A stretch of DNA of 37,816 nt, taken from positions 1 to 37,816 of IMG/VR virus record IMGVR_UViG_2563366922_000008; one strand, written 5' to 3'. Shown here piece after piece: positions 517 through 17,007 of this stretch; the first letter of the stretch is position 1, and each line of letters opens with the position of its first letter. The translations under genes and the position numbers were made by a program. This DNA is from a virus (lineage: Duplodnaviria > Heunggongvirae > Uroviricota > Caudoviricetes). Under the pieces are notes generated by a model. The model searched no databases. It was given only the letters and a program-made list of their open reading frames with translations, and was not told the DNA's origin.

Positions 517-1953
517 TTAAGTTAAACCAATTAATCCATGCCCGGTTGAAGCATGTAAGTCCTGAATTAATGCTGCAACTACCTTTGCTAAATCTTCGTG
601 AGTTATTGTTCCAGAGTTAAATGCTGCTCGGGATACGGTGCCGGTTGGCGATCCCCATCCCGTCCTCCTCTCTGAAATAACTTGATTGCCATTAAGTCGT
701 ATTCTTAAGTTGTTGAAGTTAGCCCAGTTCTCAGCCCTGTTGAAACTCAAATGTGTTGTATTTGCCGGGCCCGTTCCTACCGTAATTCGTTGATTGTCGC
801 CCATCAAAATTGCGCAGTTGTTTGAAAATCTAGCTTCAGAAAATGAAATTCCACTCCTAAAATAATTTGTTCTAAATCTAATGCCGTTTGCAGCTCCAGA
901 TGATAGAGATCCCTCAAGTCTGATGTATTCGCCATTACCTACCTCGGTTAGTTCCTCTGTTGGAGTGGAAATAGAATTACCTCTAAACAACATTCCTGTC
1001 CAGATATAACCATTTGGAGCTTCACTCCCTCTTCCGATGGTAATCATCTGTGTTACTGGATTGCTTTTATCCTGAGTTACACATACCAACCCTCTTACAG
1101 ATCCTTGCAGTGCATTCTCCATCCATCCTTTATCGGGACCTCGATTATTCAGATTAAATTCATGTGCAATAGTGCTAATCGCTCCATTCTGCACTGCATC
1201 TCCTAATACTGCACCATATGACCACCCCCCCCATGTTTCGGCTTGCGGATTTCTTGATTCTCCACGCATGTGGTGACCAATTGAATGCCCATTCCCTCCC
1301 TCATGCTTAGCAACACTTGTAGTTGTGCATGTATATGCACTTCCTGACACCTTGCGCAAAGAGTTATAAATTACCCCCTGATCCCATCGTTTGATGCCGT
1401 CATCCCTAGTTGCAGAACTAATTTTTTCCAGCCAAATAATGGGATCTGGAATTGGTGTTTCTGGTATGGAGAATCTCTGTCGTGTAGCATTTTTATATAT
1501 GATAGTTTCATTGTTATAAATATTGTCACCAGCTGCATCTGAACCAGTCCATCCTGAGCCAGCATAAAAATTCTTAAGTCCATCACCAGACTGTCCAGTC
1601 AAAACTACTCTTAACTGATCCGGGTCATACTTCAGCACATTTGGGAATTTGAACTGCTGTGCACCATACGCATCATAAACAGCCATAGAATGGCCTTGCT
1701 CAGTTACGAATTTGGCAATCTGTCCGTTATATACAGGGTAACCAGCGGCGTTAATGATGATTGGTTGCGAAACGGGAACATGAGAGCCGTCTTCGTTCTC
1801 TACATAAACCTGAATCTGGTTTTCAGGATTTACTGGGTCAGTGTCAATTTTACCGATATAAATCTTTCCATTAGCTACGGCTTTAAAAGAACGAGCCATA
1901 GTGAAGAGTTGCGAAGGCATGCTGACTACAACATTGGCTGTAATGTCTGTCAT
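517..1953 (-). CDS. Tailspike / tail fiber protein with P22 gp9-type N-terminal head-binding domain and a divergent receptor-binding region
   Basis: 478-aa ORF; N-terminus [11 protein letters not shown]...[33 protein letters not shown]...NVLKYDPDQ matches the P22 tailspike head-binding domain as I recall it; rest unlike the P22 endorhamnosidase; GGAG 8 nt upstream of ATG. Confidence 0.8.
1225..1232 (-). repeat. Homopolymeric G8 tract (C8 on plus strand) inside tailspike coding sequence
   Basis: Plus strand ...accaCCCCCCCCatg...; encodes W-G-G-W (tgg ggg ggg tgg) in the tailspike frame. Confidence 0.9.
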
Positions 1954-2099: not shown

Positions 2100-2351
2100 A
2101 TGGGAAGAGATGACCCGCAATTTAATCTGCGGCTACCTTACGAATTAAAGGAAAAACTAAAACAGCGAGCCAAATCCAATGGCCGCTCTCTTAATTCAGA
2201 ATTAGTTCAGATAGTTACTGATGCTGTATCAAAGCCATCCAAAATTTCAGGCTATCGAGACGATGCGGAACGCATCGCTGATGAGCAGTCCGAACTTGTT
2301 AAGAAGATGGTGTTTGATACGCTGAAGGATTTGTACAAAAAACCCACCTGA
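2100..2351 (+). CDS. mnt: Mnt repressor (ribbon-helix-helix, P22 immI-type)
   Basis: 83-aa ORF MGRDDPQFNLRLPYELKEKLKQRAKSNGRSLNSELVQIVTDAVSKPS...ADEQSELVKKMVFDTLKDLYKK, matching P22 Mnt in length and sequence as recalled. Confidence 0.85.
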   Translation: MGRDDPQFNLRLPYELKEKLKQRAKSNGRSLNSELVQIVTDAVSKPSKISGYRDDAERIADEQSELVKKMVFDTLKDLYKKPT

Positions 2352-2636: not shown

Positions 2637-2658
2637 AGCCGGATCACTCCGGCTTTTT
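2637..2658 (+). terminator. Rho-independent terminator (aagccgga-tcact-ccggctt + TTTTT) between convergent genes
   Basis: Perfect 7-bp stem with T5 run on plus strand directly after the 2451-2630 ORF; stop codon of the minus-strand gene lies inside the hairpin. Confidence 0.5.
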
Positions 2659-3009
2659 GATATGTCGCTCGCAGAACTCAACAAGCCTGCTCATTAAGTA
2701 GCAGTAAGTCTCGTTGGCTCTTCCTGGTTCAACATCAACACCGACCCTTGAGCAGATATCGAATGCCATGTGAGCGCACTCATGGGCAATAGTAGATAGT
2801 TTGCCATTGAACACGCCTATCACATGCAAAACACCATTCTCGCTACTCATTGTATGAGACGCTCCGTTGGCGTCCGAGTCATGCACGTCAACGCCAAGTT
2901 TTTGATGCAGGCGTTGCCATTCTGGAAAGTCTCTACAAAACACAATTGTACCGCTCTCAAAGAGCGGTACTAGCATCTTTGGTACGTTTCCAATGTTAAC
3001 TTTTTTCAT
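2644..3009 (-). CDS. Hypothetical 121-aa protein with HExxH motif (possible small zinc-metallopeptidase-like protein)
   Basis: ORF MKKVNIGNVPKMLVPLFESG...STIAHECAHMAFDICSRVG...; ATG at 3009 with AGGA 5 nt upstream; HECAH is a candidate zincin motif; no family assigned. Confidence 0.5.
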   Translation of the reverse strand: MKKVNIGNVPKMLVPLFESGTIVFCRDFPEWQRLHQKLGVDVHDSDANGASHTMSSENGVLHVIGVFNGKLSTIAHECAHMAFDICSRVGVDVEPGRANETYCYLMSRLVEFCERHIKKPE

Positions 3010-3043
3010 GGTATCCTGCGCAAAACTAAGGAGAGTTAATTAT

Positions 3044-3529
3044 ATGAAAAAATCACTGTTAATTATCCCGCTTCTGCTGGCTGGGTGCGCAAAAGTAAGC
3101 GACTATCAGGCAAGTTGCGAGCAACGCTATCCAAAGCTTAGCGATATGGCTAATTGCCTTGATGCCAGCTTGAAGAACGACTCTCGCATGGCATCAGCAC
3201 CAACACCTAAGCTGTATGTCCTTGCTGCGAAGATGCTCGGGCAAGGTGTCGATGAAGGCAAGATAAGTGACACACAGGCAAGACTTGAACTTCAGAATCT
3301 TTATGTTCAATTACAAAGCCAAGAACAAGCCCAACAAATAGCGCAAAGCCAAGCATTCCAGCAGGCTTTATTGAATTATCAGGCTGTAAACACAATGCAA
3401 GCGATCGAGCAAAAAGCGCGCCAGCCTGTTATAACTCAACCTTACCCAACACGCGTTGACACATATACAAACTGCAATTCAGGATTTGGAAACACGGTAA
3501 CATGCAACAGTAGCAGTAATATCAGGTAG
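3044..3529 (+). CDS. Putative lipoprotein (161 aa) with Gln-rich helical region, in the P22 sieA slot
   Basis: ATG at 3044 with AAGGAGAG upstream; N-terminus MKKSLLIIPLLLAGCAK has signal peptide plus lipobox LAGC; Q-rich middle (QLQSQEQAQQIAQSQAFQQALLNYQ); Cys-containing C-terminus. Confidence 0.6.
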   Translation: MKKSLLIIPLLLAGCAKVSDYQASCEQRYPKLSDMANCLDASLKNDSRMASAPTPKLYVLAAKMLGQGVDEGKISDTQARLELQNLYVQLQSQEQAQQIAQSQAFQQALLNYQAVNTMQAIEQKARQPVITQPYPTRVDTYTNCNSGFGNTVTCNSSSNIR

Positions 3530-3543
3530 TTATATCTTATCTT

Positions 3544-5391
3544 TTATTGCTGTTCTGCTGTAATTTGGCTTGAAAGTATAGGGCGTATCGCATTTGCAGC
3601 ATTATTTAGCGCTCTTTCATAGGCTGGCGTTCCTGCTTTGGTGTTTGCCAAACGTAAGAGAGCATTCCTTGCTGCTTTGGACTCATACAAGCGCATCATT
3701 GCACCGAAACCAGCCTCAAGCCCCATTGATACGCCAAGAGTCGCAGTTGCGCCAATCGTCCTTATCCTGTTGGCTTGCGATTGCCCCGTCTGAGTTACTA
3801 CATTTGCGGTGTCTGACCTTGCTGTTTGCTGTAGAACTTCATGAAGAGCATCAAGCTCTTTCATGTGCTTTCCAGAAAAAATAGTGTTGTAAATTTCACC
3901 GCCTGACTGAGATTTCAGCTTATTAACTTCAGTGATGAACTTGGCTGGAGAGTCACCGGATTTTTCCGCTATTTTGCTGACGTAAGCTGCACGCATAGCA
4001 TCTTTCCCTTTATCATCCAATGCGCTCCAGATTCGTTTCACGTCAGATGGTTTTCTGCTTAATACAACGGTATTTATAAGTTCAGGACTGGCTTCACTGC
4101 TTGCCTTGTTGAGCTTGTTAGCAATGTTTTTATTAAGCACCTTATTATAAACGTTTGCATAATCGGAATTTGCTTTAAGGTATTTTGCTGCGTCTGATGC
4201 ACCGAGGTTTTTAGCAACTGCGTTACGAAGGTCTTTTGACATTGCATTCTCTACCATATTGGTAGCTGCTTTTGCCTGGTTGGGGAAGACCATAGCATCT
4301 CCCTGAACATTAGATCTAAATGCTGTTCTGTGCTGACGCAAGAGATCAAACGTAACATCCAAATCAGTTGCAGGGTTTGCTAATTCTTCACGTAGGTTAC
4401 GCAAGGATGTAAGCAGGCTTTGATTGGCAGATGTCCCAAGCCGTTCCTGTCTTGCGATCGCTGTATTCAGAGCATTCATGGTATTTGTGGTATCAACTGA
4501 GGCATTACCCATTTTATTGGTGACGTCATTGATAACAGCGCCATCGGCATCCTTCCGCCCCCTTAACGTGGTGGTCAGAGATTTCACCACATCATCAGGG
4601 TTGTACTCACCAAAACGGTCAAAATAATTACTTACCAGCTTACTACGCGTTGCATATTGCTCAGCTCGCTTTGAGCCTGTCCCGAGCAAAGCCCCCTCGG
4701 CATCCTGAGTAAGGCCACGAGTGAAAGCATTTTTCGGTGGGATGACATCAGATGTCATTGGCGTCACACCCATTGATTCTGAGGTGGCAATTTTTTTCGC
4801 TACTTCTGGCGCGATATCGCCTTTTATAGCCGTTATTCCACGCCCTATTCCCTTTGCTGCTGCGGAAAGAACACCCTGAGCGGCAAGGTTAACTCCGGCA
4901 TTTATGGCTGCATTTTGCGCGAAATCACCTTTCTGGTTTGCGGCTTCTGCCAGTGATCCAATAGCCATGCTTCCTGCCGTTCCAACTCCTGGAACTAAAT
5001 ACCCGCCAATTGTTTCTCCAGCTTGCGCATAAGGGTCTGTCGGTCGATCGACAGGGCGATAAACATCATCCAAAACCTTGGGGCCACCAAGCCCCTGGCT
5101 GATTGCATTAATCAGACTTGCGCCACCCTGCAATACGTCAAATGGTATGTTTACCAGACCACGACCAGCCTGTTCTGCAATTTGCCCTGCACTTTGAGCA
5201 CCTGTGAGCCAATCGCCAGCTTGTTGCATCAATGATGGTTCTTCACGTGCTGGTTCATTATTGGCCTGATTAACTGTTTGTTGCTGAACAGCCTGACCAG
5301 CAAAATACTCATCAATGGCGGTGCCAATATCTTCCGTGCTCGTACCATCAGGGAAGGTAAATGTCTTACCGTTTGCAGTTACTTTCATCAT
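3544..5391 (-). CDS. Ejection (injection) protein, P22 gp16-like
   Basis: 615-aa [36 protein letters not shown]...; position and size as P22 gene 16; start ATG overlaps gp20 stop. Confidence 0.85.
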
Positions 5392-6860
5392 TCCACCGTA
5401 AATTGAATGCCTGATTTTGAGGTATATGATCCGGATTGACTCTGCTGCTGTTGGGTATTTGCCGGTTGTTGGCTATTGCTCTGTTGTTGACTATTTGCAG
5501 CACTTGAAACCACCAAAGCATCATAAACGCGACCAGACTGACCACGTAATGAGTTATATTGGCCCTGCATTTTTCGCATTTTTGTTTCAGTAGCATCCTT
5601 GGAATCACCGGGCTGAGGCAGGTACATTTTGGAATACTCCTGCATCTCTGGCAGAGTAATTGCTGCACCTGTTTCTGGGCGCAAAATTGCATACAAGGCG
5701 TCTCTCGCATTTACCATATATTGCTGCTCCGCTGGTGATAGGCTTAAATTTGCAATAGTCCCATCACCAAGAGAGCGATTTATTAATGCAACTCGCTTAG
5801 GGTCAATGCTTTTACTAAGCTGATTCATTGAGTCCATTGAATCTTTTAATCGCAAAGCAAATCCTGCCGCCTTCTTGGAACCCTCATTAGCCTTATCTAT
5901 GATGCTTTGCGCTTGTGGCAAGCTAATTGGTTTAATGCCATCACCAGATATAGGTTGGTTTAGTTTTCCGGCTTCCTCGCTGCCATCGGTGTAATACTTA
6001 GTTACCGAGCCATCAGGATTGGTTTCAACCTTAAGTAATTTCTTAGCATTGGGATTAATTCCCGCCGCTGCCGCAAATGCCGCTGCACCATCGGGATCCG
6101 CCTTTAACATTTGCGCGTACTGATTATAATTCTGCATTGCAGCTGTTGGTGCATATGCTGACGTTAACGCATTTGCTCGGCTAATATCCTGCCCTCTCGC
6201 CTGAAGCGCCTCTCCAGCCTGATTGCTGCGGATTGTCTCTGCCAGCCTTCCTCGGTCAATTTCACGACCAGCCATCTTGTCCTGAACATTGAAGTAATCA
6301 ATCGGACCAAGAGCAGCCATTCCAAGGTGATCAACAAACTCACCAAATCCTGAAGGATTCTGCTGATACATCTGAGCAACGTTATTAGGGTCAACACCGA
6401 CGAGCGCCAGCTCATTGGCGTTGTTTTGCAGCCATGATTGCATTGCTTCTGGAGACGATGACGCAAGGCGTGCGCCAGCCGCTAAGGTGCCGATAGAATT
6501 GCGCTGGTCTTCGTCTGCCCACTTCATACCAGACTGAATCTTCTCTAATTGACCAGGATATTTGGTCATCAGATCTCGAACCTGCTGTCGATCACCGGAC
6601 TGGATGGCTGCCGCATATTCTTTTTGGAATGCAGCATCCGCTTCCTTTTGCTTTGCGGCTTGATATGTTTGAGCGACACTACCAAGTCCATGCAACGCCT
6701 GAAGGCCGATGTTATTGCGATCTGACCGCTCCATTTCGTTGTTCTGGCGAATATAGGCCAACGCCTCACTTACATCACTTGCCTTTGGCGCATTTGAGTT
6801 TTGCCCACCGATACCAGCAAGAAAACCGCCTGAGTTGATTCCTTGTTGCCAAGTAGCCAT
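5388..6860 (-). CDS. Ejection protein, P22 gp20-like
   Basis: 490-aa ORF between gp7 and gp16 homologues; AAGGTGGG RBS upstream of ATG. Confidence 0.85.
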
Positions 6861-6869
6861 ATTCCCACC

Positions 6870-7544
6870 TTAAAACAATGATCCAAGACCACCGATAACA
6901 CCGCCAGCAAGAGCACCAATACCAGTCCCAATAACAGGAACTGCACTACCAATCATTGCACCTGATGCCGCACCGCTCATGGCACCGCCCAAAGCTGATT
7001 GCAATCCTGATGGTCGGTTAGCATTCGCCGCAGATGCTGCCGCCTGCTGTTGATACAATTGGCTGACGTTGTTAGCGTAGTTCTGTCCGGCGTTTGCCTG
7101 ACCTGTAAGAGCACCAAGGCCGATATTTGCCAGATTGTTGTAGTTGTTCATCTGACCTGACAGCCAGTTTTGACCGAGTGTAGGTGCGATTGCTGCCAGC
7201 TGGTTTCCGGTTGCTGTAGAGCCTAATCCACCAGTTGCCTCTGCTGCTGCCAGACTCTGATAGCGCGCCTGCCATGCAAGGTCTTTGTACTGCTGAGAGT
7301 TGTAATACTGGTTAAGAGCCTGACCTTGCCCCTGAAGAGAGGAAAGATTCTGCAACTCTGATACATACTGCTGAGCAAGTGGCGTGAACGGTGCAAGGTT
7401 TTGCATGTTCGTCTGCCACATTTCACGCTGCAGTTCGATGTTCTTTTCAGTTGCGCGTGCCTGGGCTTTAGAGCCGCCATCACTGCCACCTTTGCAGTAA
7501 ACAGCTTTGCTGAGGTGCTTATTGGCAATCTGGAAAATTAACAT
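6870..7544 (-). CDS. Ejection protein, P22 gp7-like
   Basis: 224-aa ORF ...KAQARATEKNIELQREMWQTNMQNLAPFTPL... with Gly/Ala-rich C-terminus; GAGGAG RBS; P22 gene order. Confidence 0.8.
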   Translation of the reverse strand: MLIFQIANKHLSKAVYCKGGSDGGSKAQARATEKNIELQREMWQTNMQNLAPFTPLAQQYVSELQNLSSLQGQGQALNQYYNSQQYKDLAWQARYQSLAAAEATGGLGSTATGNQLAAIAPTLGQNWLSGQMNNYNNLANIGLGALTGQANAGQNYANNVSQLYQQQAAASAANANRPSGLQSALGGAMSGAASGAMIGSAVPVIGTGIGALAGGVIGGLGSLF

Positions 7545-7998
7545 TCTTTAGCTCCTCGTATTTTGAGCGCGGTAACTGATAAATCGTGATGCCTACAGGC
7601 TTTCCATTGCTGGTATAAGCATCATCAAGGTGACCAACACGGGTAGCGCCAAGCAAACGGATAATTGACCGTCCGTATTTGGTGGTGTCAGGAACCATGG
7701 TGATGCTGTTAAGGAATGGTGAGTTTTCGAGAAGCCATTTGCAGAATAATCGATGCCCTTGCAGTGCATATTCACCACGGAATCCGGGGTCGTACACCGC
7801 ATGGCATTCCACAACGCTATGCCAGAAGTTACGCACTTCATGAACGCCAGACAGCACTAATCCTTCGTAGATGCCGAGATATACCGCATCAGGCTTGATG
7901 TAGTATTTATCTCCACTGTCTACGATATTTCCCGTGTTTGCCGGGTTGTTGAGGAATTCTGCAAGCTTCACCGGATTATCGATGAGCTTTATTTCCAT
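7519..7998 (-). CDS. gp14-like virion assembly protein (assigned by position)
   Basis: 159-aa [26 protein letters not shown]... between needle and gp7 genes; ATG at 7998 overlaps needle stop (table start 8001 is GTG). Confidence 0.65.
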   Translation of the reverse strand: MEIKLIDNPVKLAEFLNNPANTGNIVDSGDKYYIKPDAVYLGIYEGLVLSGVHEVRNFWHSVVECHAVYDPGFRGEYALQGHRLFCKWLLENSPFLNSITMVPDTTKYGRSIIRLLGATRVGHLDDAYTSNGKPVGITIYQLPRSKYEELKNVNFPDCQ

Positions 7999-8951
7999 CA
8001 CTGCTCCGCAATGATTTTGATGGTTGTGGCAGTAAACGCCGCACCATTTGACTGAATGGTTAACGTGCTGCCATTTGTGGCAAGAAAGCCGTCTTTATCC
8101 ACGCTGAAGAACGTAGCTAACAGGATGTTGTCGGTTGTTGTCGCCGCATTACGACTGCTAACCAACGTATCAGGAACAGAACCGGAAAAAGTTAGCTGCA
8201 TTGACCTGTTGGCGGTTCCACTGGGCCACGTCCCGACAATTGATAGCTTGAAGAACAATGTTTTGTTCTCGTTGAACACAACCATCTTGTTGTTAACGGT
8301 GTCGAAGAATGGTGCCAACGTGCCGGATGACGGCGTGAGCGTTTTCAGCAGGCTAACAAGGTTGGTCGGCGCTATCGGGATGGTTACAGATACTCCTGAG
8401 TAAACAACCTCTGATTTCTTGCGCGTGATGGCATACTCAAGCGCAGATATTCTTGTTGAGTGATCACCAACTGTGCTTTGTAGCGTCGAAATACTTCCCT
8501 CTGCCGCTGTGAGCCTGGTATCAAGTGCGTCGATATCGGTTGTATTCTGAGTTATTCGCGCATCATGGTTTGCTAACTCAGATTCATTGGCAGCAATTCG
8601 CGTCTCGTGATCAGCCAGGTCTGTTTCGGCAGCCGTAATCCTTGTTTCATGATCTGCAAGAGTGCTTTCCGCTGCTGCGATTCTATGTTCATGATTGACG
8701 AGAGTTGCTTCAGCAGCAGCAATTCTGGATTCATGGTCTGCAAGGGTGACATCCTGCTCATCATTCTTCACCTGTGCATCATAAGCCCCCTTCCCTGCTT
8801 CGTTGGCCTTGTTAGCCACGTTACCAACATCAGTGCCCTGTGCGATAACGTACAGCAGATATGACTGCGAGAAGATATTGCGTGGAAGGACTGATGTGTC
8901 GAGTCGTGTAGCCTGAATGATTACCGGCTCATTGAGATTCGAATCAGCCAT
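7998..8951 (-). CDS. Tail needle protein, P22 gp26-like N-terminus with extended C-terminal domain
   Basis: 317-aa ORF; N-terminus [43 protein letters not shown] matches P22 gp26 as recalled; central tandem 14-residue repeats; about 85 aa longer than P22 gp26. Confidence 0.8.
8545..8745 (-). repeat. In-frame tandem repeats (about 42 bp units) encoding ADHE(S/T)RI(A/T)AAE.. repeats of the needle coiled coil
   Basis: Four to five consecutive near-identical 14-aa units ([15 protein letters not shown] / [14 protein letters not shown] / [14 protein letters not shown] / [14 protein letters not shown]) visible in translation and DNA; coordinates approximate. Confidence 0.6.
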
Positions 8952-10369
8952 TACTCGATCCTTATCTGGCAGCCTGACAGAGTGACAGGTGACTTAGTGA
9001 TAACACGCAATTTGAAGCCGACATTTTTCCTGATGCGCCCAACTCGCTTCCACAAAACGCGTTTGTCGTAAACGAACGGTTCATTCTGCTCAATCATCTG
9101 CTCACGACCGTAATTGATGCCGTCAGTGGTTGCAGAGAGGAACAGGCGGTCGGCGTACTGAGCTACGCCAGTGGATGATTCCACCTCCAGATCGAAGCAT
9201 CTGGCGTTATCCGCTTTGAACAGTGGAGTAAACAGCAGGTGTTCCTGTTGAAGCCCATACTGGCTGCTGATATCGAACTGCAATTTGCCGGTAACAGATT
9301 CCAGCTTATCGCCGCACGTTATCTGATTGCCTTCGTAAATGAAGTCGATAGCGCGGTACACATCGTCATACAGGCCTGTTTTCAGCACACACCATTGCGG
9401 ACCATTGGCGCTTGAAGATGCGTCGTACACCAGAACATGGCGCGGAAGATGGATAATCAGCAGCTCATGCGCATCAAATCGCAGAGACTCCATTACGCCA
9501 TCAGCCAGTTCATCAGCAGTGTAGGAGCGTAGTATTTTCTCAATGCTCGCACTGGCGATTGGTGATACCTGGCCGGAGCCGATGATGTATACAGACGGAG
9601 CACCTGTTGCCGGATTGCTGATGAACGCATAGGAATCAGCGAATGGCGTTTTGCAATAGGTTCCGGCAATACCTTTCTGCACCATCAGCGATGGTTGTGC
9701 AACATACAAAGCGGCACCAACGGTGGTTGCACCAGTCAGGGAAAAATACTCAATCGTCGATGAACCAAAGCAGACGATGAAGTCTCGCCATGTTCCGATT
9801 CCGATGATGCCGTCAGGCTGCGACTCGGCACGATATTGTGCGCTGTAGCGGTCAGGATGCGATTCGTCTTCAAGGTCAGTGATAAACCATGAATCAGTGC
9901 CGTCTTTTGACCACGCATAACGCCCGCGTAAGCGCGTAATGTCACGAACAGAACCTAACTCATACTGCGTGAATCCGCTGTCTGTAGGCCAGTTTGAGAC
10001 GGTTTTAACCGTGCCATCATAACGATACTCGACCAGGTGACCATTAACGCCTACCGCCTGTGATGTCCGACCATGCGCCATTGATACGCGACCACTTCCG
10101 GCAACATCACCGACTTCACTTTCGCCCTTATACAGCTTGCCACCACACACGCGATAAACAGCATTCTGCGCCATGTTGTACTCGACGCCTCGCGATACGC
10201 CGTTCACATCAGAACGTTTGGCAATGCCCGGGAATGAGCGAAGATATCCGCTGCTGTTGAGGATTTCTTTGGGTGTAGCCAGCATATTCACTGGAAGATA
10301 GTCGATATAGTCGGCGTTTCGAAAGTCTTTGCCGACACCTTTCATAAGCGGAAGTTGCTGAATCGGCAT
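8951..10369 (-). CDS. Tail accessory / head completion protein, P22 gp10-like
   Basis: 472-aa ORF in gene-10 position; stop overlaps needle start (TAATG). Confidence 0.85.
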
Positions 10370-10869
10370 TATTCGCTCCCGTTATCGCAAGGTTCCTTTC
10401 GGTGGAAGTAATTCCAACCGTTCCACTTCGCCAACTGGTTACCGCTACCAACAGGCATACGGTTTGGATAACCGGACTTACATTTAGCGGCTTTTGCTCT
10501 GTCCATTGCAGACAGTTTGACGAGTCGCTCTTTCCCGTATCTGGCAGTGGTTATAAGTTTTGCAGACGCTTCCAGCGCATAATCTGGAGCAATGCGGCAG
10601 GCAAGGTTGAAAATGACGGCATTGATAGCGTTATTTGATAAACCGTGCTCATCGCCCGGATCCGGAGCAACATCTGCATCAGCAAAAATGTAGCCAACGC
10701 TGATACCAGGTGACGCATCACCGCCAAGCCATTCCGCCATCATCATTTCAAGGTCGTTGATACCATCTTCCATGGACTGAGGTTCGACATCGGTTAACGT
10801 GGCATTTGATGCCACACCGAGCTTACGTAATGCCGCAAGAACTAAATCACCCTTCGTTGTCAGGTTCAT
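10369..10869 (-). CDS. Tail accessory / head completion protein, P22 gp4-like
   Basis: ATG at 10869 gives 166 aa [33 protein letters not shown]...[14 protein letters not shown]..., the size of P22 gp4; table start 10935 is TTG. Confidence 0.8.
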
Positions 10870-11077
10870 CTGCTGCCGCCTTAGGTTTTCGACCAGGCTT
10901 TTTACGCTGCTTTTCTTCTGGCTCTGGCTCCGCAACGTCCTTCAGAAGGTCATCGGGATGTGCAAACCAACCAGCATCCAGATATTCCTGAATCTCTTCG
11001 GCTTTCACAATTTCAAAGTCGTAGCCAACGCCTTTCCACTTCTTCATGTCGCCATGACGAAAGATCATGTGTGTCAT
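10847..11077 (-). CDS. Hypothetical 76-aa protein between coat and gp4 genes
   Basis: ATG at 11077 with GGAG 8 nt upstream; [45 protein letters not shown]...; charged C-terminal tail; an alternative GTG at 11125 overlaps coat stop. Confidence 0.4.
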
Positions 11078-11121: not shown

Positions 11122-12417
11122 TCACGCGGTCTGGTTAGGCAGACCAACACCAATTGCCTCTGGTCGTACAGCACATGCTGAATACCACACAGCAATACGG
11201 CACTTACCAGACAGAGTATTGATATCACCCTGCGTTGCGAAGATGCCGTTAACACCAATACCAGGAATGCTGAAGGAAGAAGTTTTCATGCCAGCAAACA
11301 GTTCATGGGTTACCGGAATCGGCTGAGACAGCAGGCGGATTGAGTCATCAGCCCAGAACACGTTAGCGGTGGTTGTTGCCACGTTCAGAACGTTTACCGG
11401 AGTGGTATCAGCAAGAGAGGTGTTTACGTTAGCGTAAGCCTTCTCTTCTTTTGTCAGTGACGCGTCATCCAGCGCAATCGGCTTCGGCGTGATTTCGATG
11501 TGAGTACTATCGATCACACGGGTGATTGAGAAAGTCGCGTCATCAGTCAGCACATTCTTCGCCATCTGAGACAGGAACTTCACACCAGTGAAGCTGATTT
11601 TGTCGCCGCGCTTAAATCCGGTGGTGGAGGATACGGTCACCGTTGCAACACGGTTGTCGACGTTCTCTTTGTTACCATCGGTATCAAGGGTGTACGCCTG
11701 CGGCTTAAACTTCTGCGCACCAGAAACAGTCACACCAGTAGCGGTTGACTTGGTAACTGCCGGAAGTTTCGGTGAGCGCAGAATTTCATCAAAGCCAGCA
11801 ATCTGACGCTGAATAGTACCGTTGCGATACGCGTCTTCAGGAACGCGACCGAAGATGTCACCATCTACCAGGTTACGGCCTGCTTTGCGGTAATCGTCAG
11901 GGTTCAGGAAGTAACTGATGCCCATGTCGCGGTTGAGTTCTCGGGAGAACATCAGGCGCTCTGCATCAGACACAAAATCCCAGCCAGACAGGCCAGTAGA
12001 TGGACCAATTGCGCGGGTATCGTGAACAACAAGCGAGCCAATTTCAGTTGCCTGTTTGGCAATCGCTGACTCAATGTTATTCGCCAGTTTTTTGGCGGAT
12101 GCCTGGATGCGGCGACGGTAAGAACGCTCATCACGCAGGTCATCTGCACGAAGCTCGAAGAAATCGTTATCCGGATCGCCCATGTTGCATTTCACGGACA
12201 GTTCCAGAATACCGGTAGCGTTGCCAGTTAAATCCCAGCCAGTCTGAGTTGGCGCTTCCTGCTCAACAGGCATCCACACGGTGTTGCTTGAACGTTGCAT
12301 GGATTCTGCCGGAGGGGTGTATTTTGTCACTTTAGACGCCATTGGCGTCAGGTTCTGGATGGTTTCGATGATTTCATCCAGAGCATACGTGACCAGTTGA
12401 CCTTCATTTAATGCCAT
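11122..12417 (-). CDS. Major capsid (coat) protein, P22 gp5-like
   Basis: 431-aa [30 protein letters not shown]...[15 protein letters not shown]...; closely resembles P22 coat protein as recalled. Confidence 0.9.
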
Positions 12418-13341: not shown

Positions 13342-15507
13342 TTATTGAGGTGTCTCGGCTACTCCGCCGGAGGGGATTTGAACTTGACGCATAAGATTCG
13401 CGAAATCCATGCGTTGTGAATGAGTCTGGTCTGCATCTTTAAGAAGCAGCTCAGCGTTAGCACGAGCATCTTTGCTGCGCTGTTGCTGGAATTGACCTAC
13501 GAGCTTGAGGTACTCACGCAGTTCTGCCTGCTTGTCTAGGTCCATATTGTTGAAGATTTCCGCAATCTTCGCGGCGTTGAGTTGGTTTTGGGCTTCAACC
13601 TTGGCGGCTTCAACCTGAATCTGCGCCTGTTGGTTCTCTGCCTTGAGCAATTCAGCCTGACCTTGCAGAAGGATACCCTGCGCCTGAATTTGCTCTGCTG
13701 ATGGCTGCTGCGGCTGCTGTTGAGCCTGCTGTACCATCTCCATCTCTTCAGGTGTTTCTGGTTTCTTCAGCCCCATCATCACCAGTTGCTTGTTCGCGTA
13801 CTCTCGCATCATCTCGACGCCTTTACCGTCAAGCAGCGTGAAGTATTGCAGCATCAGCATCTGGAACTCTGGAGTACCTTGCGGAACCTTGGTGAGTAAC
13901 TCCTGAATCTCTGCGCGGTTCTGTTCCTTCATGCTCTGGAAGGATGGCCCAACGTCCGTATAGCACTCATAGCGACCACGAATGTCGTTGAGTGTGACCA
14001 CATTGCCGGACTGGTAATCGACAACTTGTGCATAGAGTTGAACGTCTTTCTCGCTTCCATCTTCAAGTGTCAGCGTTACATGACGAGGAACGTCATAAAT
14101 ATCGTTGACCATTGAGGCATAAATCTCGCCATCACGTCGCATTGCGGTAGCCAGGTTATCCTGAAACACGTATGTCTCAAGGTCTGCCCGCATGTTCAGT
14201 TGATTGACGGTATCGAAAGCTACCTGACCATTTGCCGCCTGCGCATCCACGCCAAGACTAGCCACCTCTTTCACTGCGTTGGTGGCAGCCTCAAGCATGT
14301 AAGCGTTGGCTTGCGGCACTTCAGGGTTTTCCATGTAGGAGATTGGACCAATCGGCAGGTCGTTACCGTTTTCATCGGTCCTGTTCTGCAGATAGTACGG
14401 ATAGTCATCATTTCCACCGTACATGTATTCGTAGCCTTCGATTTGCTCAGGGAAGAAGGTCGGTTTCTTCTTCGGTGAACGAGCAACGATATCGGCGTTG
14501 AACGACATGATCATGTTACGAAGGCGCTGACCGTCTTTCGTCAGCCTTACCACTCCTTCGTAGCACTCCTTGTCACCAGCGAATGACCATTCGCCATACA
14601 CTGGAACGATTGGAATATGCTCTCCGGCTATCTTCTCGCGGTCTTTCAGTATCTGCGTGCAGGTGATGATCGACTTATACACACGCCGACGCTTGACCTT
14701 ACGCTCTGCTACCTTAATGAATCCACGATTAGCCAGGTCGTCGATGACGTCTTTGATATCCTGCTGGTAATAGCTGACCGGCTCACCTGTCAGCGGGTCG
14801 CGGTAGATGAAGACCTTCTCTTTCTTCTCTTCGACCTCGTAATACTCAGCGACGTAGACGACATCATTCGATACCCACGGAAACAGCCATGTATCGTTCG
14901 GATTCTGGAAAGATGGCAAGGTGTCCGGATCAATACCGTAATCCTCTGCGAACTCTTTCCAGCCATTGCGCGACAAGGCGTTAATCACCGTGCAGTGCTT
15001 AGCGTCGCTCTTATCCATCTGCTTGCTGTTGGCGTCCCATATGACGTGTGAGCAGGCTTCATGAATTGGCAGGCGTCTGATTACCTGATTGTTGCTTGTT
15101 GGGTCGTTGTCTTCGTACTGTGTGACCAGACGCCATGCACCAACGCCGGACTCTATCTGCTCACGAACGCCAACGTTAACGGCAATCTTTGCCGTGTTAT
15201 GGCGCATATCAGTACGATACATCCCCATCAACACATCGGCTGCATCAGGACTAGCGCCGTCTTTGGGTCGGAAGAGAACGTCGATAGGGTTCCGGCGCAT
15301 CTCTGCGACCAGTTTCCTGACCACCGGGCGAACAACATCGAATTGTCCGCGATATTGCAGGGTGGTGTAGTTTGATAGCCAGTCATCCCATTGCGACACT
15401 CGGCTAAAATACAGGTCATTTGTCGCCTCGGTTCTGGCTTCATCGCTCGCCATCCAGTCTGCGTCAAACTTACACAGAATGGAATTGAGTCTGTTTTCGT
15501 CGGCCAT
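13342..15507 (-). CDS. Portal protein, P22 gp1-like
   Basis: 721-aa ORF ...[73 protein letters not shown]...; size and order as P22 gene 1. Confidence 0.9.
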
Positions 15508-17007
15508 TTAAGTTCTCCGTGCGATGGGCCTGATTGGGGCTGGTATCTTTTTCTCTTTTGGTTTTTTGATGTCGCGCATCATTTTGGCGAAGCGGCGCAT
15601 CATGTATGCATAGCGAACGGCGGAGAGAACGTCATCGTTAAGCTTGACGATCTTCCCGTTTTCATCACGGTGATAGAGGCGAAACTCCTCAAAGAATGGC
15701 TCACAGGTGTTGAATACTTTGAAGCGACCATCAAGCATCATGTCTCGCAATTCAGTGATGCCAGGCTCAACAGCATTACCGCCATCAGGCCATGTCGCAT
15801 GCTCCTGCAACATCATAAAACCAGCATCTGCATACTGCCCTTTGAGCTGCTCACCGCCGCCCTTCTCATGCTGGTTTCCGTCATGAGGCCATGCTGTTGG
15901 CACTTTATGCGCCCATGATTTAACAGCTCCCCATGCCTGAACGGCTGTTTTTTCTTTCGCCTTCCACACGCGTGAAACGTAGATTGTGTCTGCGTCCTTA
16001 TCCCACCAAAGCTGAACCTGCGCCTGCGGGTGATCCCATCCGAAATCCATCCCGCCAATTACGTAGAAGTGATCAGGGCACTCAAACGGCTGACACTTAA
16101 TCGTCTCTTCCGGTATCTGGAAGATTCGCCCGCTACCCATCGTAGGAATACCGCGAGCACGCGCCTCTCTCTCATGCTCAGGATAGGATGCGATGATTTG
16201 CTCTTTCTGCTCGTCGGTGTAGTGCTCAGCGTCATAGATGGTCATGTTGACCACTTTCTGCGACTTGCTGGGATTCTTCAGGAACTTGGTAACAACGTCA
16301 GACATCCCCATCAGCGGGGTAAACGTCAGAATTGAGAATTGCCCGTATTTGTTGGTACGGGTAAGACCTTCGCCATAAATGCTGTATGGTGGCTCTTCGT
16401 CAAACCACACGCCGTGGATTGTGTCACCCTGCCAGCGAGCACGGCCTTGCGAGTATGGTTTGAAGTAGCAGATTGAAATGCCATCTTCAACGCCATCAGC
16501 CGTGTGATGCTTAACCAGAAGGTGATCAACAAGGTTCGGAAAGAAAGGAGACTTCTTCCAGCTAATGATGTCTTCTTTAGGTATGGAACCGTAGCCTGGC
16601 TCATCATTCTCTTCGATACGACCACACAGGATGCGTTGAGTCGTTTTGGTTACAGTCTCGTTTGTCTCGCCGCCAATCCAGAAGACAACAGGCTCATAGA
16701 AACGCTTACCTTTCCACTCCCCACCATATTTACCATCAGCAGGATAGCCTTTTGTGCCCGGATAACGCCCTGTAAGGTGAAACGCGACTTCAGCAGCACC
16801 AGTAAATGACTTACCAAGCTGGTTACCAGCCATAAAACATCGCTCTGGATAGTCATGTCCGGCGTCGATGAACTCACGCTGTTTGCTGTATGGCGTAAAT
16901 TCATATAGCAGGTGTGTGTTCCGGTAGTTCTCTTCTTCTTCGAGTAGCTCGAGCAATTCGATTTGCTCTTCGTCGCTCAAGTTATCAAGAATCGCGTCCA
17001 GTTCCAC
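15508..17007 (-). CDS. Terminase large subunit, P22 gp2-like
   Basis: 499-aa [70 protein letters not shown]...; apparent GTG start with AAGGAG upstream. Confidence 0.9.

Follow-up and report, generated by a model that had tools for sequence, protein, structure and literature searches.

The window, the whole 37,816-nucleotide stretch of viral DNA analyzed here, contains virion genes in the order terminase, portal, coat, gp4, gp10, needle, DUF2824, gp7, gp20, and tailspike (Table 1). This is the gene order of phage P22, and it marks the window as a phage or prophage of the P22-like type (Lederbergvirus). The closest whole-region matches were mosaic E. coli phages with ~96% identity over half of the query. 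The gene studied here encodes the tail needle. It directly follows the gp10 gene and precedes the gp14, gp7, gp20, and gp16-position genes, an order common to Sf6, JEP4, and HS1. The stop codon of the gp10 homologue upstream shares 1 nt with the needle ATG, and the needle stop codon in turn shares 1 nt with the likely ATG (7998) of the DUF2824 gene downstream.

Table 1. Features of the virion gene region and of the tail needle gene
Feature	Coordinates	Strand	Size	Evidence or remark
Large terminase	15508-17007	-		
P22-type portal	13342-15507	-		
P22 coat	11122-12417	-		
gp4-like ORF, as called	10369-10935	-	188 aa	TTG start
gp10-type tail hub (Phage_stabilise)	8951-10369	-	472 aa	PF11134, E 6e-300
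Tail needle	7998-8951	-	317 aa	ATG start
Needle, N-terminal plug domain	8766-8951	-	residues 1-62	match to gp26 residues 1-62 (8EAP_B)
Needle, coiled-coil shaft	8427-8765	-	residues 63-175, 16 heptads	a/d pattern
Needle, five tandem 42-bp / 14-residue units	8538-8747	-	residues 69-138	consensus xLADHExRIxAAEx
Needle, sixth, degenerate 14-residue unit	8496-8537	-		
Needle, C-terminal Sf6-type knob	8001-8426	-	residues 176-317 (142 aa)	PF16532
DUF2824 protein (P22 gp14 / Sf6 gp10 position)	7519-8001	-	160 aa	PF11039, E 2.6e-64
gp7 (P22_gp7)	6870-7544	-		
gp20-like (Inj_translocase)	5388-6860	-		
ORF in gp16 position	3544-5391	-	615 aa	no Pfam hit
Tailspike	517-1953	-	478 aa	P22 head-binding domain

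The real start of the gp4-like ORF is probably further downstream than the one called because its homologues in related loci have only 153-160 aa. Residues 1 to ~116 of the tailspike form the P22/Sf6 head-binding domain (PF09008; PDB 7SG7, 8TVR), and the remaining ~360 residues matched no Pfam family and no sequence in the PDB. The tailspike is short; spikes found beside the same needle type elsewhere are mostly 550-805 aa. The interval from the gp16-position gene to the tailspike contains three ORFs, 2100-2351 (+), 2644-3009 (-), and 2993-3529 (+). One is a Mnt/Arc-type repressor gene (PF03869 + PF11423). The other two matched no Pfam family, and the 178-aa member of this pair has a lipoprotein-like signal at its start (…LLLAGCAKV). 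Three ORFs that overlap the needle gene (8607-8864, +; 8573-8764, - in another frame; 8056-8403, +) were taken as by-products of repetitive coding, and no evidence was found for any of them as a gene.

Identity and occurrence of the needle gene

The needle protein matched phrog_1030 'tail needle knob' with an E value of 3.5e-135, and phrog_1219 'tail needle protein' spanned residues 1-111. Three features place the protein in the gp26 family of needles: its N-terminal homology, the location of its gene immediately behind the gp10 homologue, and heptads that run through the shaft. It is the orthologue of P22 gene 26, Sf6 gene 9, and EcHS_A0316 of prophage HS1. Nothing was found that contradicts the tail needle identification, and the gene is almost certainly the needle of a P22-like phage or prophage and of the published HS1 type.

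Needles of the same 317-aa length in the isolated phages JEP4, vB_EcoP-720R6, and Gally are 97% identical to this one, and the name 'tail needle knob protein' is carried by a 98%-identical cluster of 1430 sequences. In 164 of 5426 complete E. coli genomes, one place covered 80% or more of the gene, and the matches listed measured 952-954 bp. Only the knob half of the gene is left in many O157:H7 genomes, as a pseudogene beside IS1203 (for example L004:1412-1948 in E. coli O157:H7 strain 9234). These pseudogenes fit the 'remnant' prophages mentioned in PMC3741392. The 2013 survey recorded knob-type needles in Escherichia and Shigella P22-like phages only (PMC3741392). Such needles were seen here in Klebsiella aerogenes and Serratia marcescens prophages and in Salmonella, Aeromonas, and Shewanella phages (proteins P0064-P0075; loci L003, L006, L007, and L082-L087).

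The plug domain and the knob

Residues 1 to ~124 matched the P22 gp26 chains 4LIN, 2POH, 3C9I, and 8EAP_B with E values from 1e-27 to 7e-50. The 8EAP_B chain is the part of gp26 seen in the tail complex, residues 1-62 (E 1.5e-27), and the 2POH, 3C9I, and 4LIN matches also start at residue 1. BLASTP against P22 gp26 gave 53% identity over residues 1-159, with the first 68 residues almost identical, so the preliminary description of a gp26-like N terminus was accurate. Needle N termini are located at the tail hub channel in the cryo-EM structure of the Sf6 tail (PMC9728967). Residues 1-62 are predicted to bind the channel of the gp10 tail hub, a role taken from the P22 and Sf6 literature (PMC9728967, PMC3741392). 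By homology, three copies of the needle would assemble into a thin fiber whose N-terminal ~60 residues would plug the gp10 channel and retain the packaged DNA. Release of the needle at infection would then let the ejection proteins and the DNA exit.

The C-terminal region was described at the outset as rich in Ser and Thr and as a candidate distal knob, and both points held. Ser and Thr make up 27% of residues 176-317 compared to 10% of residues 1-68. PF16532 (Phage_tail_NK) matched residues 136-317 over its full length (model positions 1-175 of 175) with a score of 353.6 bits against a cut-off of 27 (E 2e-106). Residues 165-317 are identical to the HS1 knob (4K6B) at 150 of 153 positions and to the Sf6 gp9 knob (3RWN) at 148 of 153. 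No alignment was obtained between the C-terminal region and the tip of P22 gp26, a full match to which would have spoken against an added domain. The 1.1 Å structure of the HS1 knob shows a trimer with a TNF-like jellyroll fold and three L-glutamates bound (PMC3741392). With 150 of 153 residues identical, this crystal structure settles the knob fold more firmly than a predicted model could. The residues that contact L-glutamate and those of the phosphate triad are listed in PMC3741392. All of the ligand residues are kept with the same numbers as in HS1 (E181, K235, S283, D285, L290, and K312), and the triad S266-R267-N268 is present at the same positions. Residues 176-317 would therefore be expected, by analogy with HS1, to form a distal Sf6-type knob that binds three L-glutamates at its subunit interfaces.

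The knob might instead be a receptor-binding adhesin that sets host range and constitutes the main functional novelty of the needle, with the shaft as a passive spacer. It is the most distal point of the virion, and the TNF-like fold also occurs in the receptor-binding fiber knobs of adenovirus and PRD1 (PMC3741392). However, Salmonella is infected normally by hybrid P22 that bears the tip of HS1 or Sf6, which argues that the knob has no role in species specificity; no visible effect followed from mutating the glutamate site, and the only thing changed was ejection kinetics, the HS1 tip slowing K+ release (PMC3741392). Nor did needle length show coupling to tailspike size. The 317-aa needle was paired with tailspikes of 38 different lengths (208-805 aa) at 49 loci from IMG/VR and other sources, of which the three spikes shorter than 240 aa are probably fragments. 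One needle type with many tailspike lengths indicates that specificity is carried elsewhere. An adhesin role is unlikely on this evidence, and the needle tip would be expected to affect the rate of DNA delivery and not host specificity.

The P22 gp26 needle has 233 residues, so the 317-aa needle is 84 aa longer, close to the ~85 aa first estimated. The knob explains part of this difference, through a tip that is larger by 49 aa. The other 35 aa are five additional heptads of the shaft.

The coiled-coil shaft

The shaft was delimited by its heptad pattern. Leucine, isoleucine, or valine occupies the a position at every seventh residue from L70 to I175 without exception, and the d positions read QHAHAHAHNHNLALHL and are of the types H, A, N, and L. 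The resulting count of 16 heptads agrees with the published HS1 count. By analogy with known needles, residues 63-175 would form a trimeric coiled coil that projects past the tailspikes.

The shaft contains a two-heptad repeat. Protein identity at a lag of 14 residues was 0.43 compared to 0.095 ± 0.029 in shuffled sequences (z = 11.8), and DNA identity at a lag of 42 bp was 0.60 compared to 0.31 ± 0.035 in codon shuffles (z = 8.5); none of 5000 shuffles reached the observed value in either case. Tandem Repeats Finder reported a period of 42 at 8625-8748 (3.0 copies, 68% matches, score 102). The preliminary description had placed near-identical 14-residue units at roughly 8545-8745. The period and the location were upheld, the first five units lying within a few bases of that interval (Table 1). 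The near-identity was not. Units 1-4 agree at 9-11 of 14 residues and, in DNA, at 20-33 of 42 bases, unit 5 shares 5-7 of 14 residues, and the longest word common to two units is 10 nt. Where the residue is the same, the codon is also the same in only 35% of cases, roughly as often as codon usage by itself predicts. The repeats of this shaft are old and diverged. They form two-heptad blocks in which each a position has Leu or Ile and the d positions alternate between His and Ala.

Such divergence would be expected if the 14-residue periodicity reflected nothing but the constraints of a trimeric coiled coil, with no recombining array and an effectively fixed needle length. Relatives with only 76-80% identity, among them prophages of Klebsiella aerogenes and Serratia marcescens, conserve the 317-aa, 16-heptad design, which points in the same direction. 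The units in the window are too diverged to separate an origin by duplication from a shared structural constraint, and the evidence that bears on this choice comes from the length variants described below.

Histidine and alanine alternate at the d positions through the repeat units (H73, H87, H101, H115, and H129, then H164). Each unit gained or lost would thus add or remove one ring of three core histidines. The histidines at alternate d positions would form six such layers in this needle and three to eight among the variants. Trimer geometry and histidine layers are predicted by analogy with gp26 because, among PDB sequences, the HS1-type structure comprises the knob plus 9 shaft residues and no full HS1-type shaft was found. 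The tail needle papers found say nothing on a role of the d-position histidines.

Needle length variants

A search of a large protein collection (E ≤ 1e-20) returned 2404 homologues. The best 120 were examined, and 112 of these were complete. Their lengths were 254, 268, 282, 289, 296, 303, 310, 317, 331, 338, and 345 aa, plus a few odd values. The difference from 317 was a multiple of 7 in 104 of these 112 complete homologues among the best 120 (93%). The corresponding in-phase shafts have 45, 59, 73, 80, 87, 94, 101, 108, 122, 129, and 136 residues and include well-populated classes. Written out 14 residues to the line, each variant departs from its nearest relatives by whole units. The suggestion that repeat number could vary and alter the predicted shaft length was thus borne out, with 254- to 345-aa variants that differ by 42- or 84-bp units at microhomologies. 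The shafts that are out of phase (lengths of 76, 89, 100, and 107 residues) belong to four singletons, P0008, P0051, P0052, and P0055 (whole proteins of 316, 298, 285, and 309 aa), and P0055 contains an out-of-register duplication. These four may be defective genes or sequencing errors. Needles of 324 or 325 aa in IMG/VR were set aside as 317-aa genes called from an upstream Met.

The DNA of 7-8 length variants was compared with Sf6, JEP4, and the window to locate the junctions. The junctions were chimeric units or 84-bp duplications at microhomologies of 3-11 nt, in frame and in heptad register. The 303-aa form (L010) carries a chimera of units 1 and 2 that removes 42 bp at the junction AGAATTGC, and the 289-aa form (L011) carries a chimera of units 1 and 3 that removes 84 bp at GCTGC. 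The 345-aa form (L009) arose by tandem duplication of units 1-2 at the junction CTTGCAGA, and its two copies are identical at 83 of 84 positions. The 331-aa form (L012) also has units 1-2 duplicated. This duplication is an event independent of the 345-aa one because its copies are identical at 84 of 84 positions and its junction, about 3 nt (CAC), is different. The same 331-aa form shows a second change, a chimera of units 4 and 5 at CGCGAAT. The 268-aa form (L015) has a deletion of seven heptads at TGATCAC. In the Sf6 lineage, the 310-aa form (L013) has a duplication of an 84-bp unit pair and the 338-aa form (L014) has a triplication of the same pair, both at the 11-nt junction GACCATGAAAC. 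Two different events were found within each of the 303-, 289-, and 268-aa classes, and the sample contains about ten or more independent length changes.

These junctions make coiled-coil constraint alone an extremely unlikely account of the periodicity. Close relatives stand one or two units apart and have chimeric junction units, and the one- or two-unit differences together with near-identical 84-bp copies (83/84 or 84/84) indicate recent gain and loss, not convergence. Three of the length classes each include two or more independent events, which argues further against a fixed length.

A different concern is that the length variants might stem from faulty assembly or from prophage genes in decay and would then carry no information on functional needle length. 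Draft assemblies and metagenomes are the source of most variants, short reads resolve exact 84-bp tandem duplications poorly, the four off-register singletons look damaged, and the O157:H7 pseudogenes document decay of this gene. Against this, the 303-aa forms are located on contigs of 4.77 and 5.29 Mb and are represented by 10-16 separate contigs each; the 331-aa form was found in 5 contigs, and some members of the in-phase classes sit on chromosomes of 4.8-5.3 Mb. The units are too diverged to confuse assemblers, and assemblers collapse duplications and do not create them. The variants lie in complete virion modules with intact neighbors, and retention of heptad phase in 93% is unexpected under decay. 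An origin in artefact or decay is very unlikely for the variants as a group.

Gain and loss of whole units is the preferred reading. We infer that short in-register microhomologies between units permit occasional unequal recombination or replication slippage, which would add or remove whole units and produce the needles of 7 to 20 heptads found in natural populations. In the window shaft, 10 exact repeats reach 7 nt or more, and eight of them are spaced by multiples of 21 bp; the mechanism alone therefore favors in-register events. This bias is probably strengthened by selection that keeps the coiled coil intact.

The dominant forms are 317 aa (the cluster of 1430) and 282 aa (a cluster of 3620). 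Unit gain and loss is infrequent because variants are rare next to these two forms. The needle gene is not a hypervariable contingency locus, and the 317-aa form is one of two common, stable lengths. A stronger proposal is that the diverged 42-bp units are a built-in length-tuning module, with lengths that might be under selection for the stability of the virion or for when its DNA is released on hosts with different envelopes. This proposal is doubtful. A correlation between coiled-coil length and stability is reportedly stated in the title of Bhardwaj et al. 2009.

Significance of the needle series

The gene is ordinary and carries little weight as a discovery. The protein, the knob structure, and the longer 16-heptad shaft are already published for prophage HS1, and genome pipelines give the protein its tail needle knob name. 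The only increment is a junction-level picture of unit gain and loss and a wider natural range, 7-20 heptads with a predicted 3-8 core histidine rings. Published needles measure 220-320 Å and have 11-16 heptads (PMC3741392). In the literature other than Bhardwaj 2009 and 2011, no description was found of the junction-level mechanism or of a range beyond 11-16 heptads, and no paper besides PMC3741392 was found that connects tail needles with heptads, duplication, or histidine. A by-product is a natural series of needles that differ by whole two-heptad units, with their junctions mapped. This series could serve tests of shaft length against virion stability and DNA-delivery kinetics, and it shows a coiled-coil fiber altering its length with the register kept.

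Comparison with known needles

The closest known system is the needle of prophage HS1 in E. coli HS (EcHS_A0316 / ECHS_RS01575; L096:35115-36068), annotated there as 'tail needle knob protein'. It also has 317 aa, and the two proteins align without gaps and are identical at 305 of 317 positions (96%), so the needle described here was already known. They share the 16 heptads, five-and-a-half LADHExRI units, the ligand residues, and the neighboring genes. Among the twelve substitutions that separate them, I176, I192, and A269 fall in or close to the knob. Outside the needle, the phage differs from HS1, which has a tailspike of 636 aa compared to 478 aa here. The published HS1 needle has an N-terminal domain 98% identical and a knob 99% identical to those of Sf6, and its shaft has 16 heptads compared to 11 in Sf6 and P22 (Leavitt et al. 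2013, PMC3741392).

The Sf6 gene 9 protein (282 aa; 3RWN) of Shigella phage Sf6 has the same N-terminal domain and knob as the needle in the window, and its gene likewise sits between the gp10 and gp14 homologues. The two needles differ in the shaft, which in Sf6 is only partly similar and is shorter by 35 residues, or five heptads (11 compared to 16), with a predicted 4 instead of 6 histidine layers. Salmonella phage P22 gp26 (2POH, 3C9I) has a nearly identical plug domain (residues 1-68), the same heptad register, and the LADHExRI motif at the same positions (H73, H87). It differs in its 11 heptads, its shorter chain, and its tip (residues 141-233), which is unrelated to the knob.

The natural variants have a counterpart in 4LIN, a 300-aa gp26 fiber engineered with a duplicated helical core, which aligns with the window shaft in two registers. 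Like the natural variants, 4LIN is lengthened by repeating part of the coiled coil. This construct was made in the laboratory and retains the P22 tip, whereas the natural variants lengthen by steps of 14 or 28 residues.
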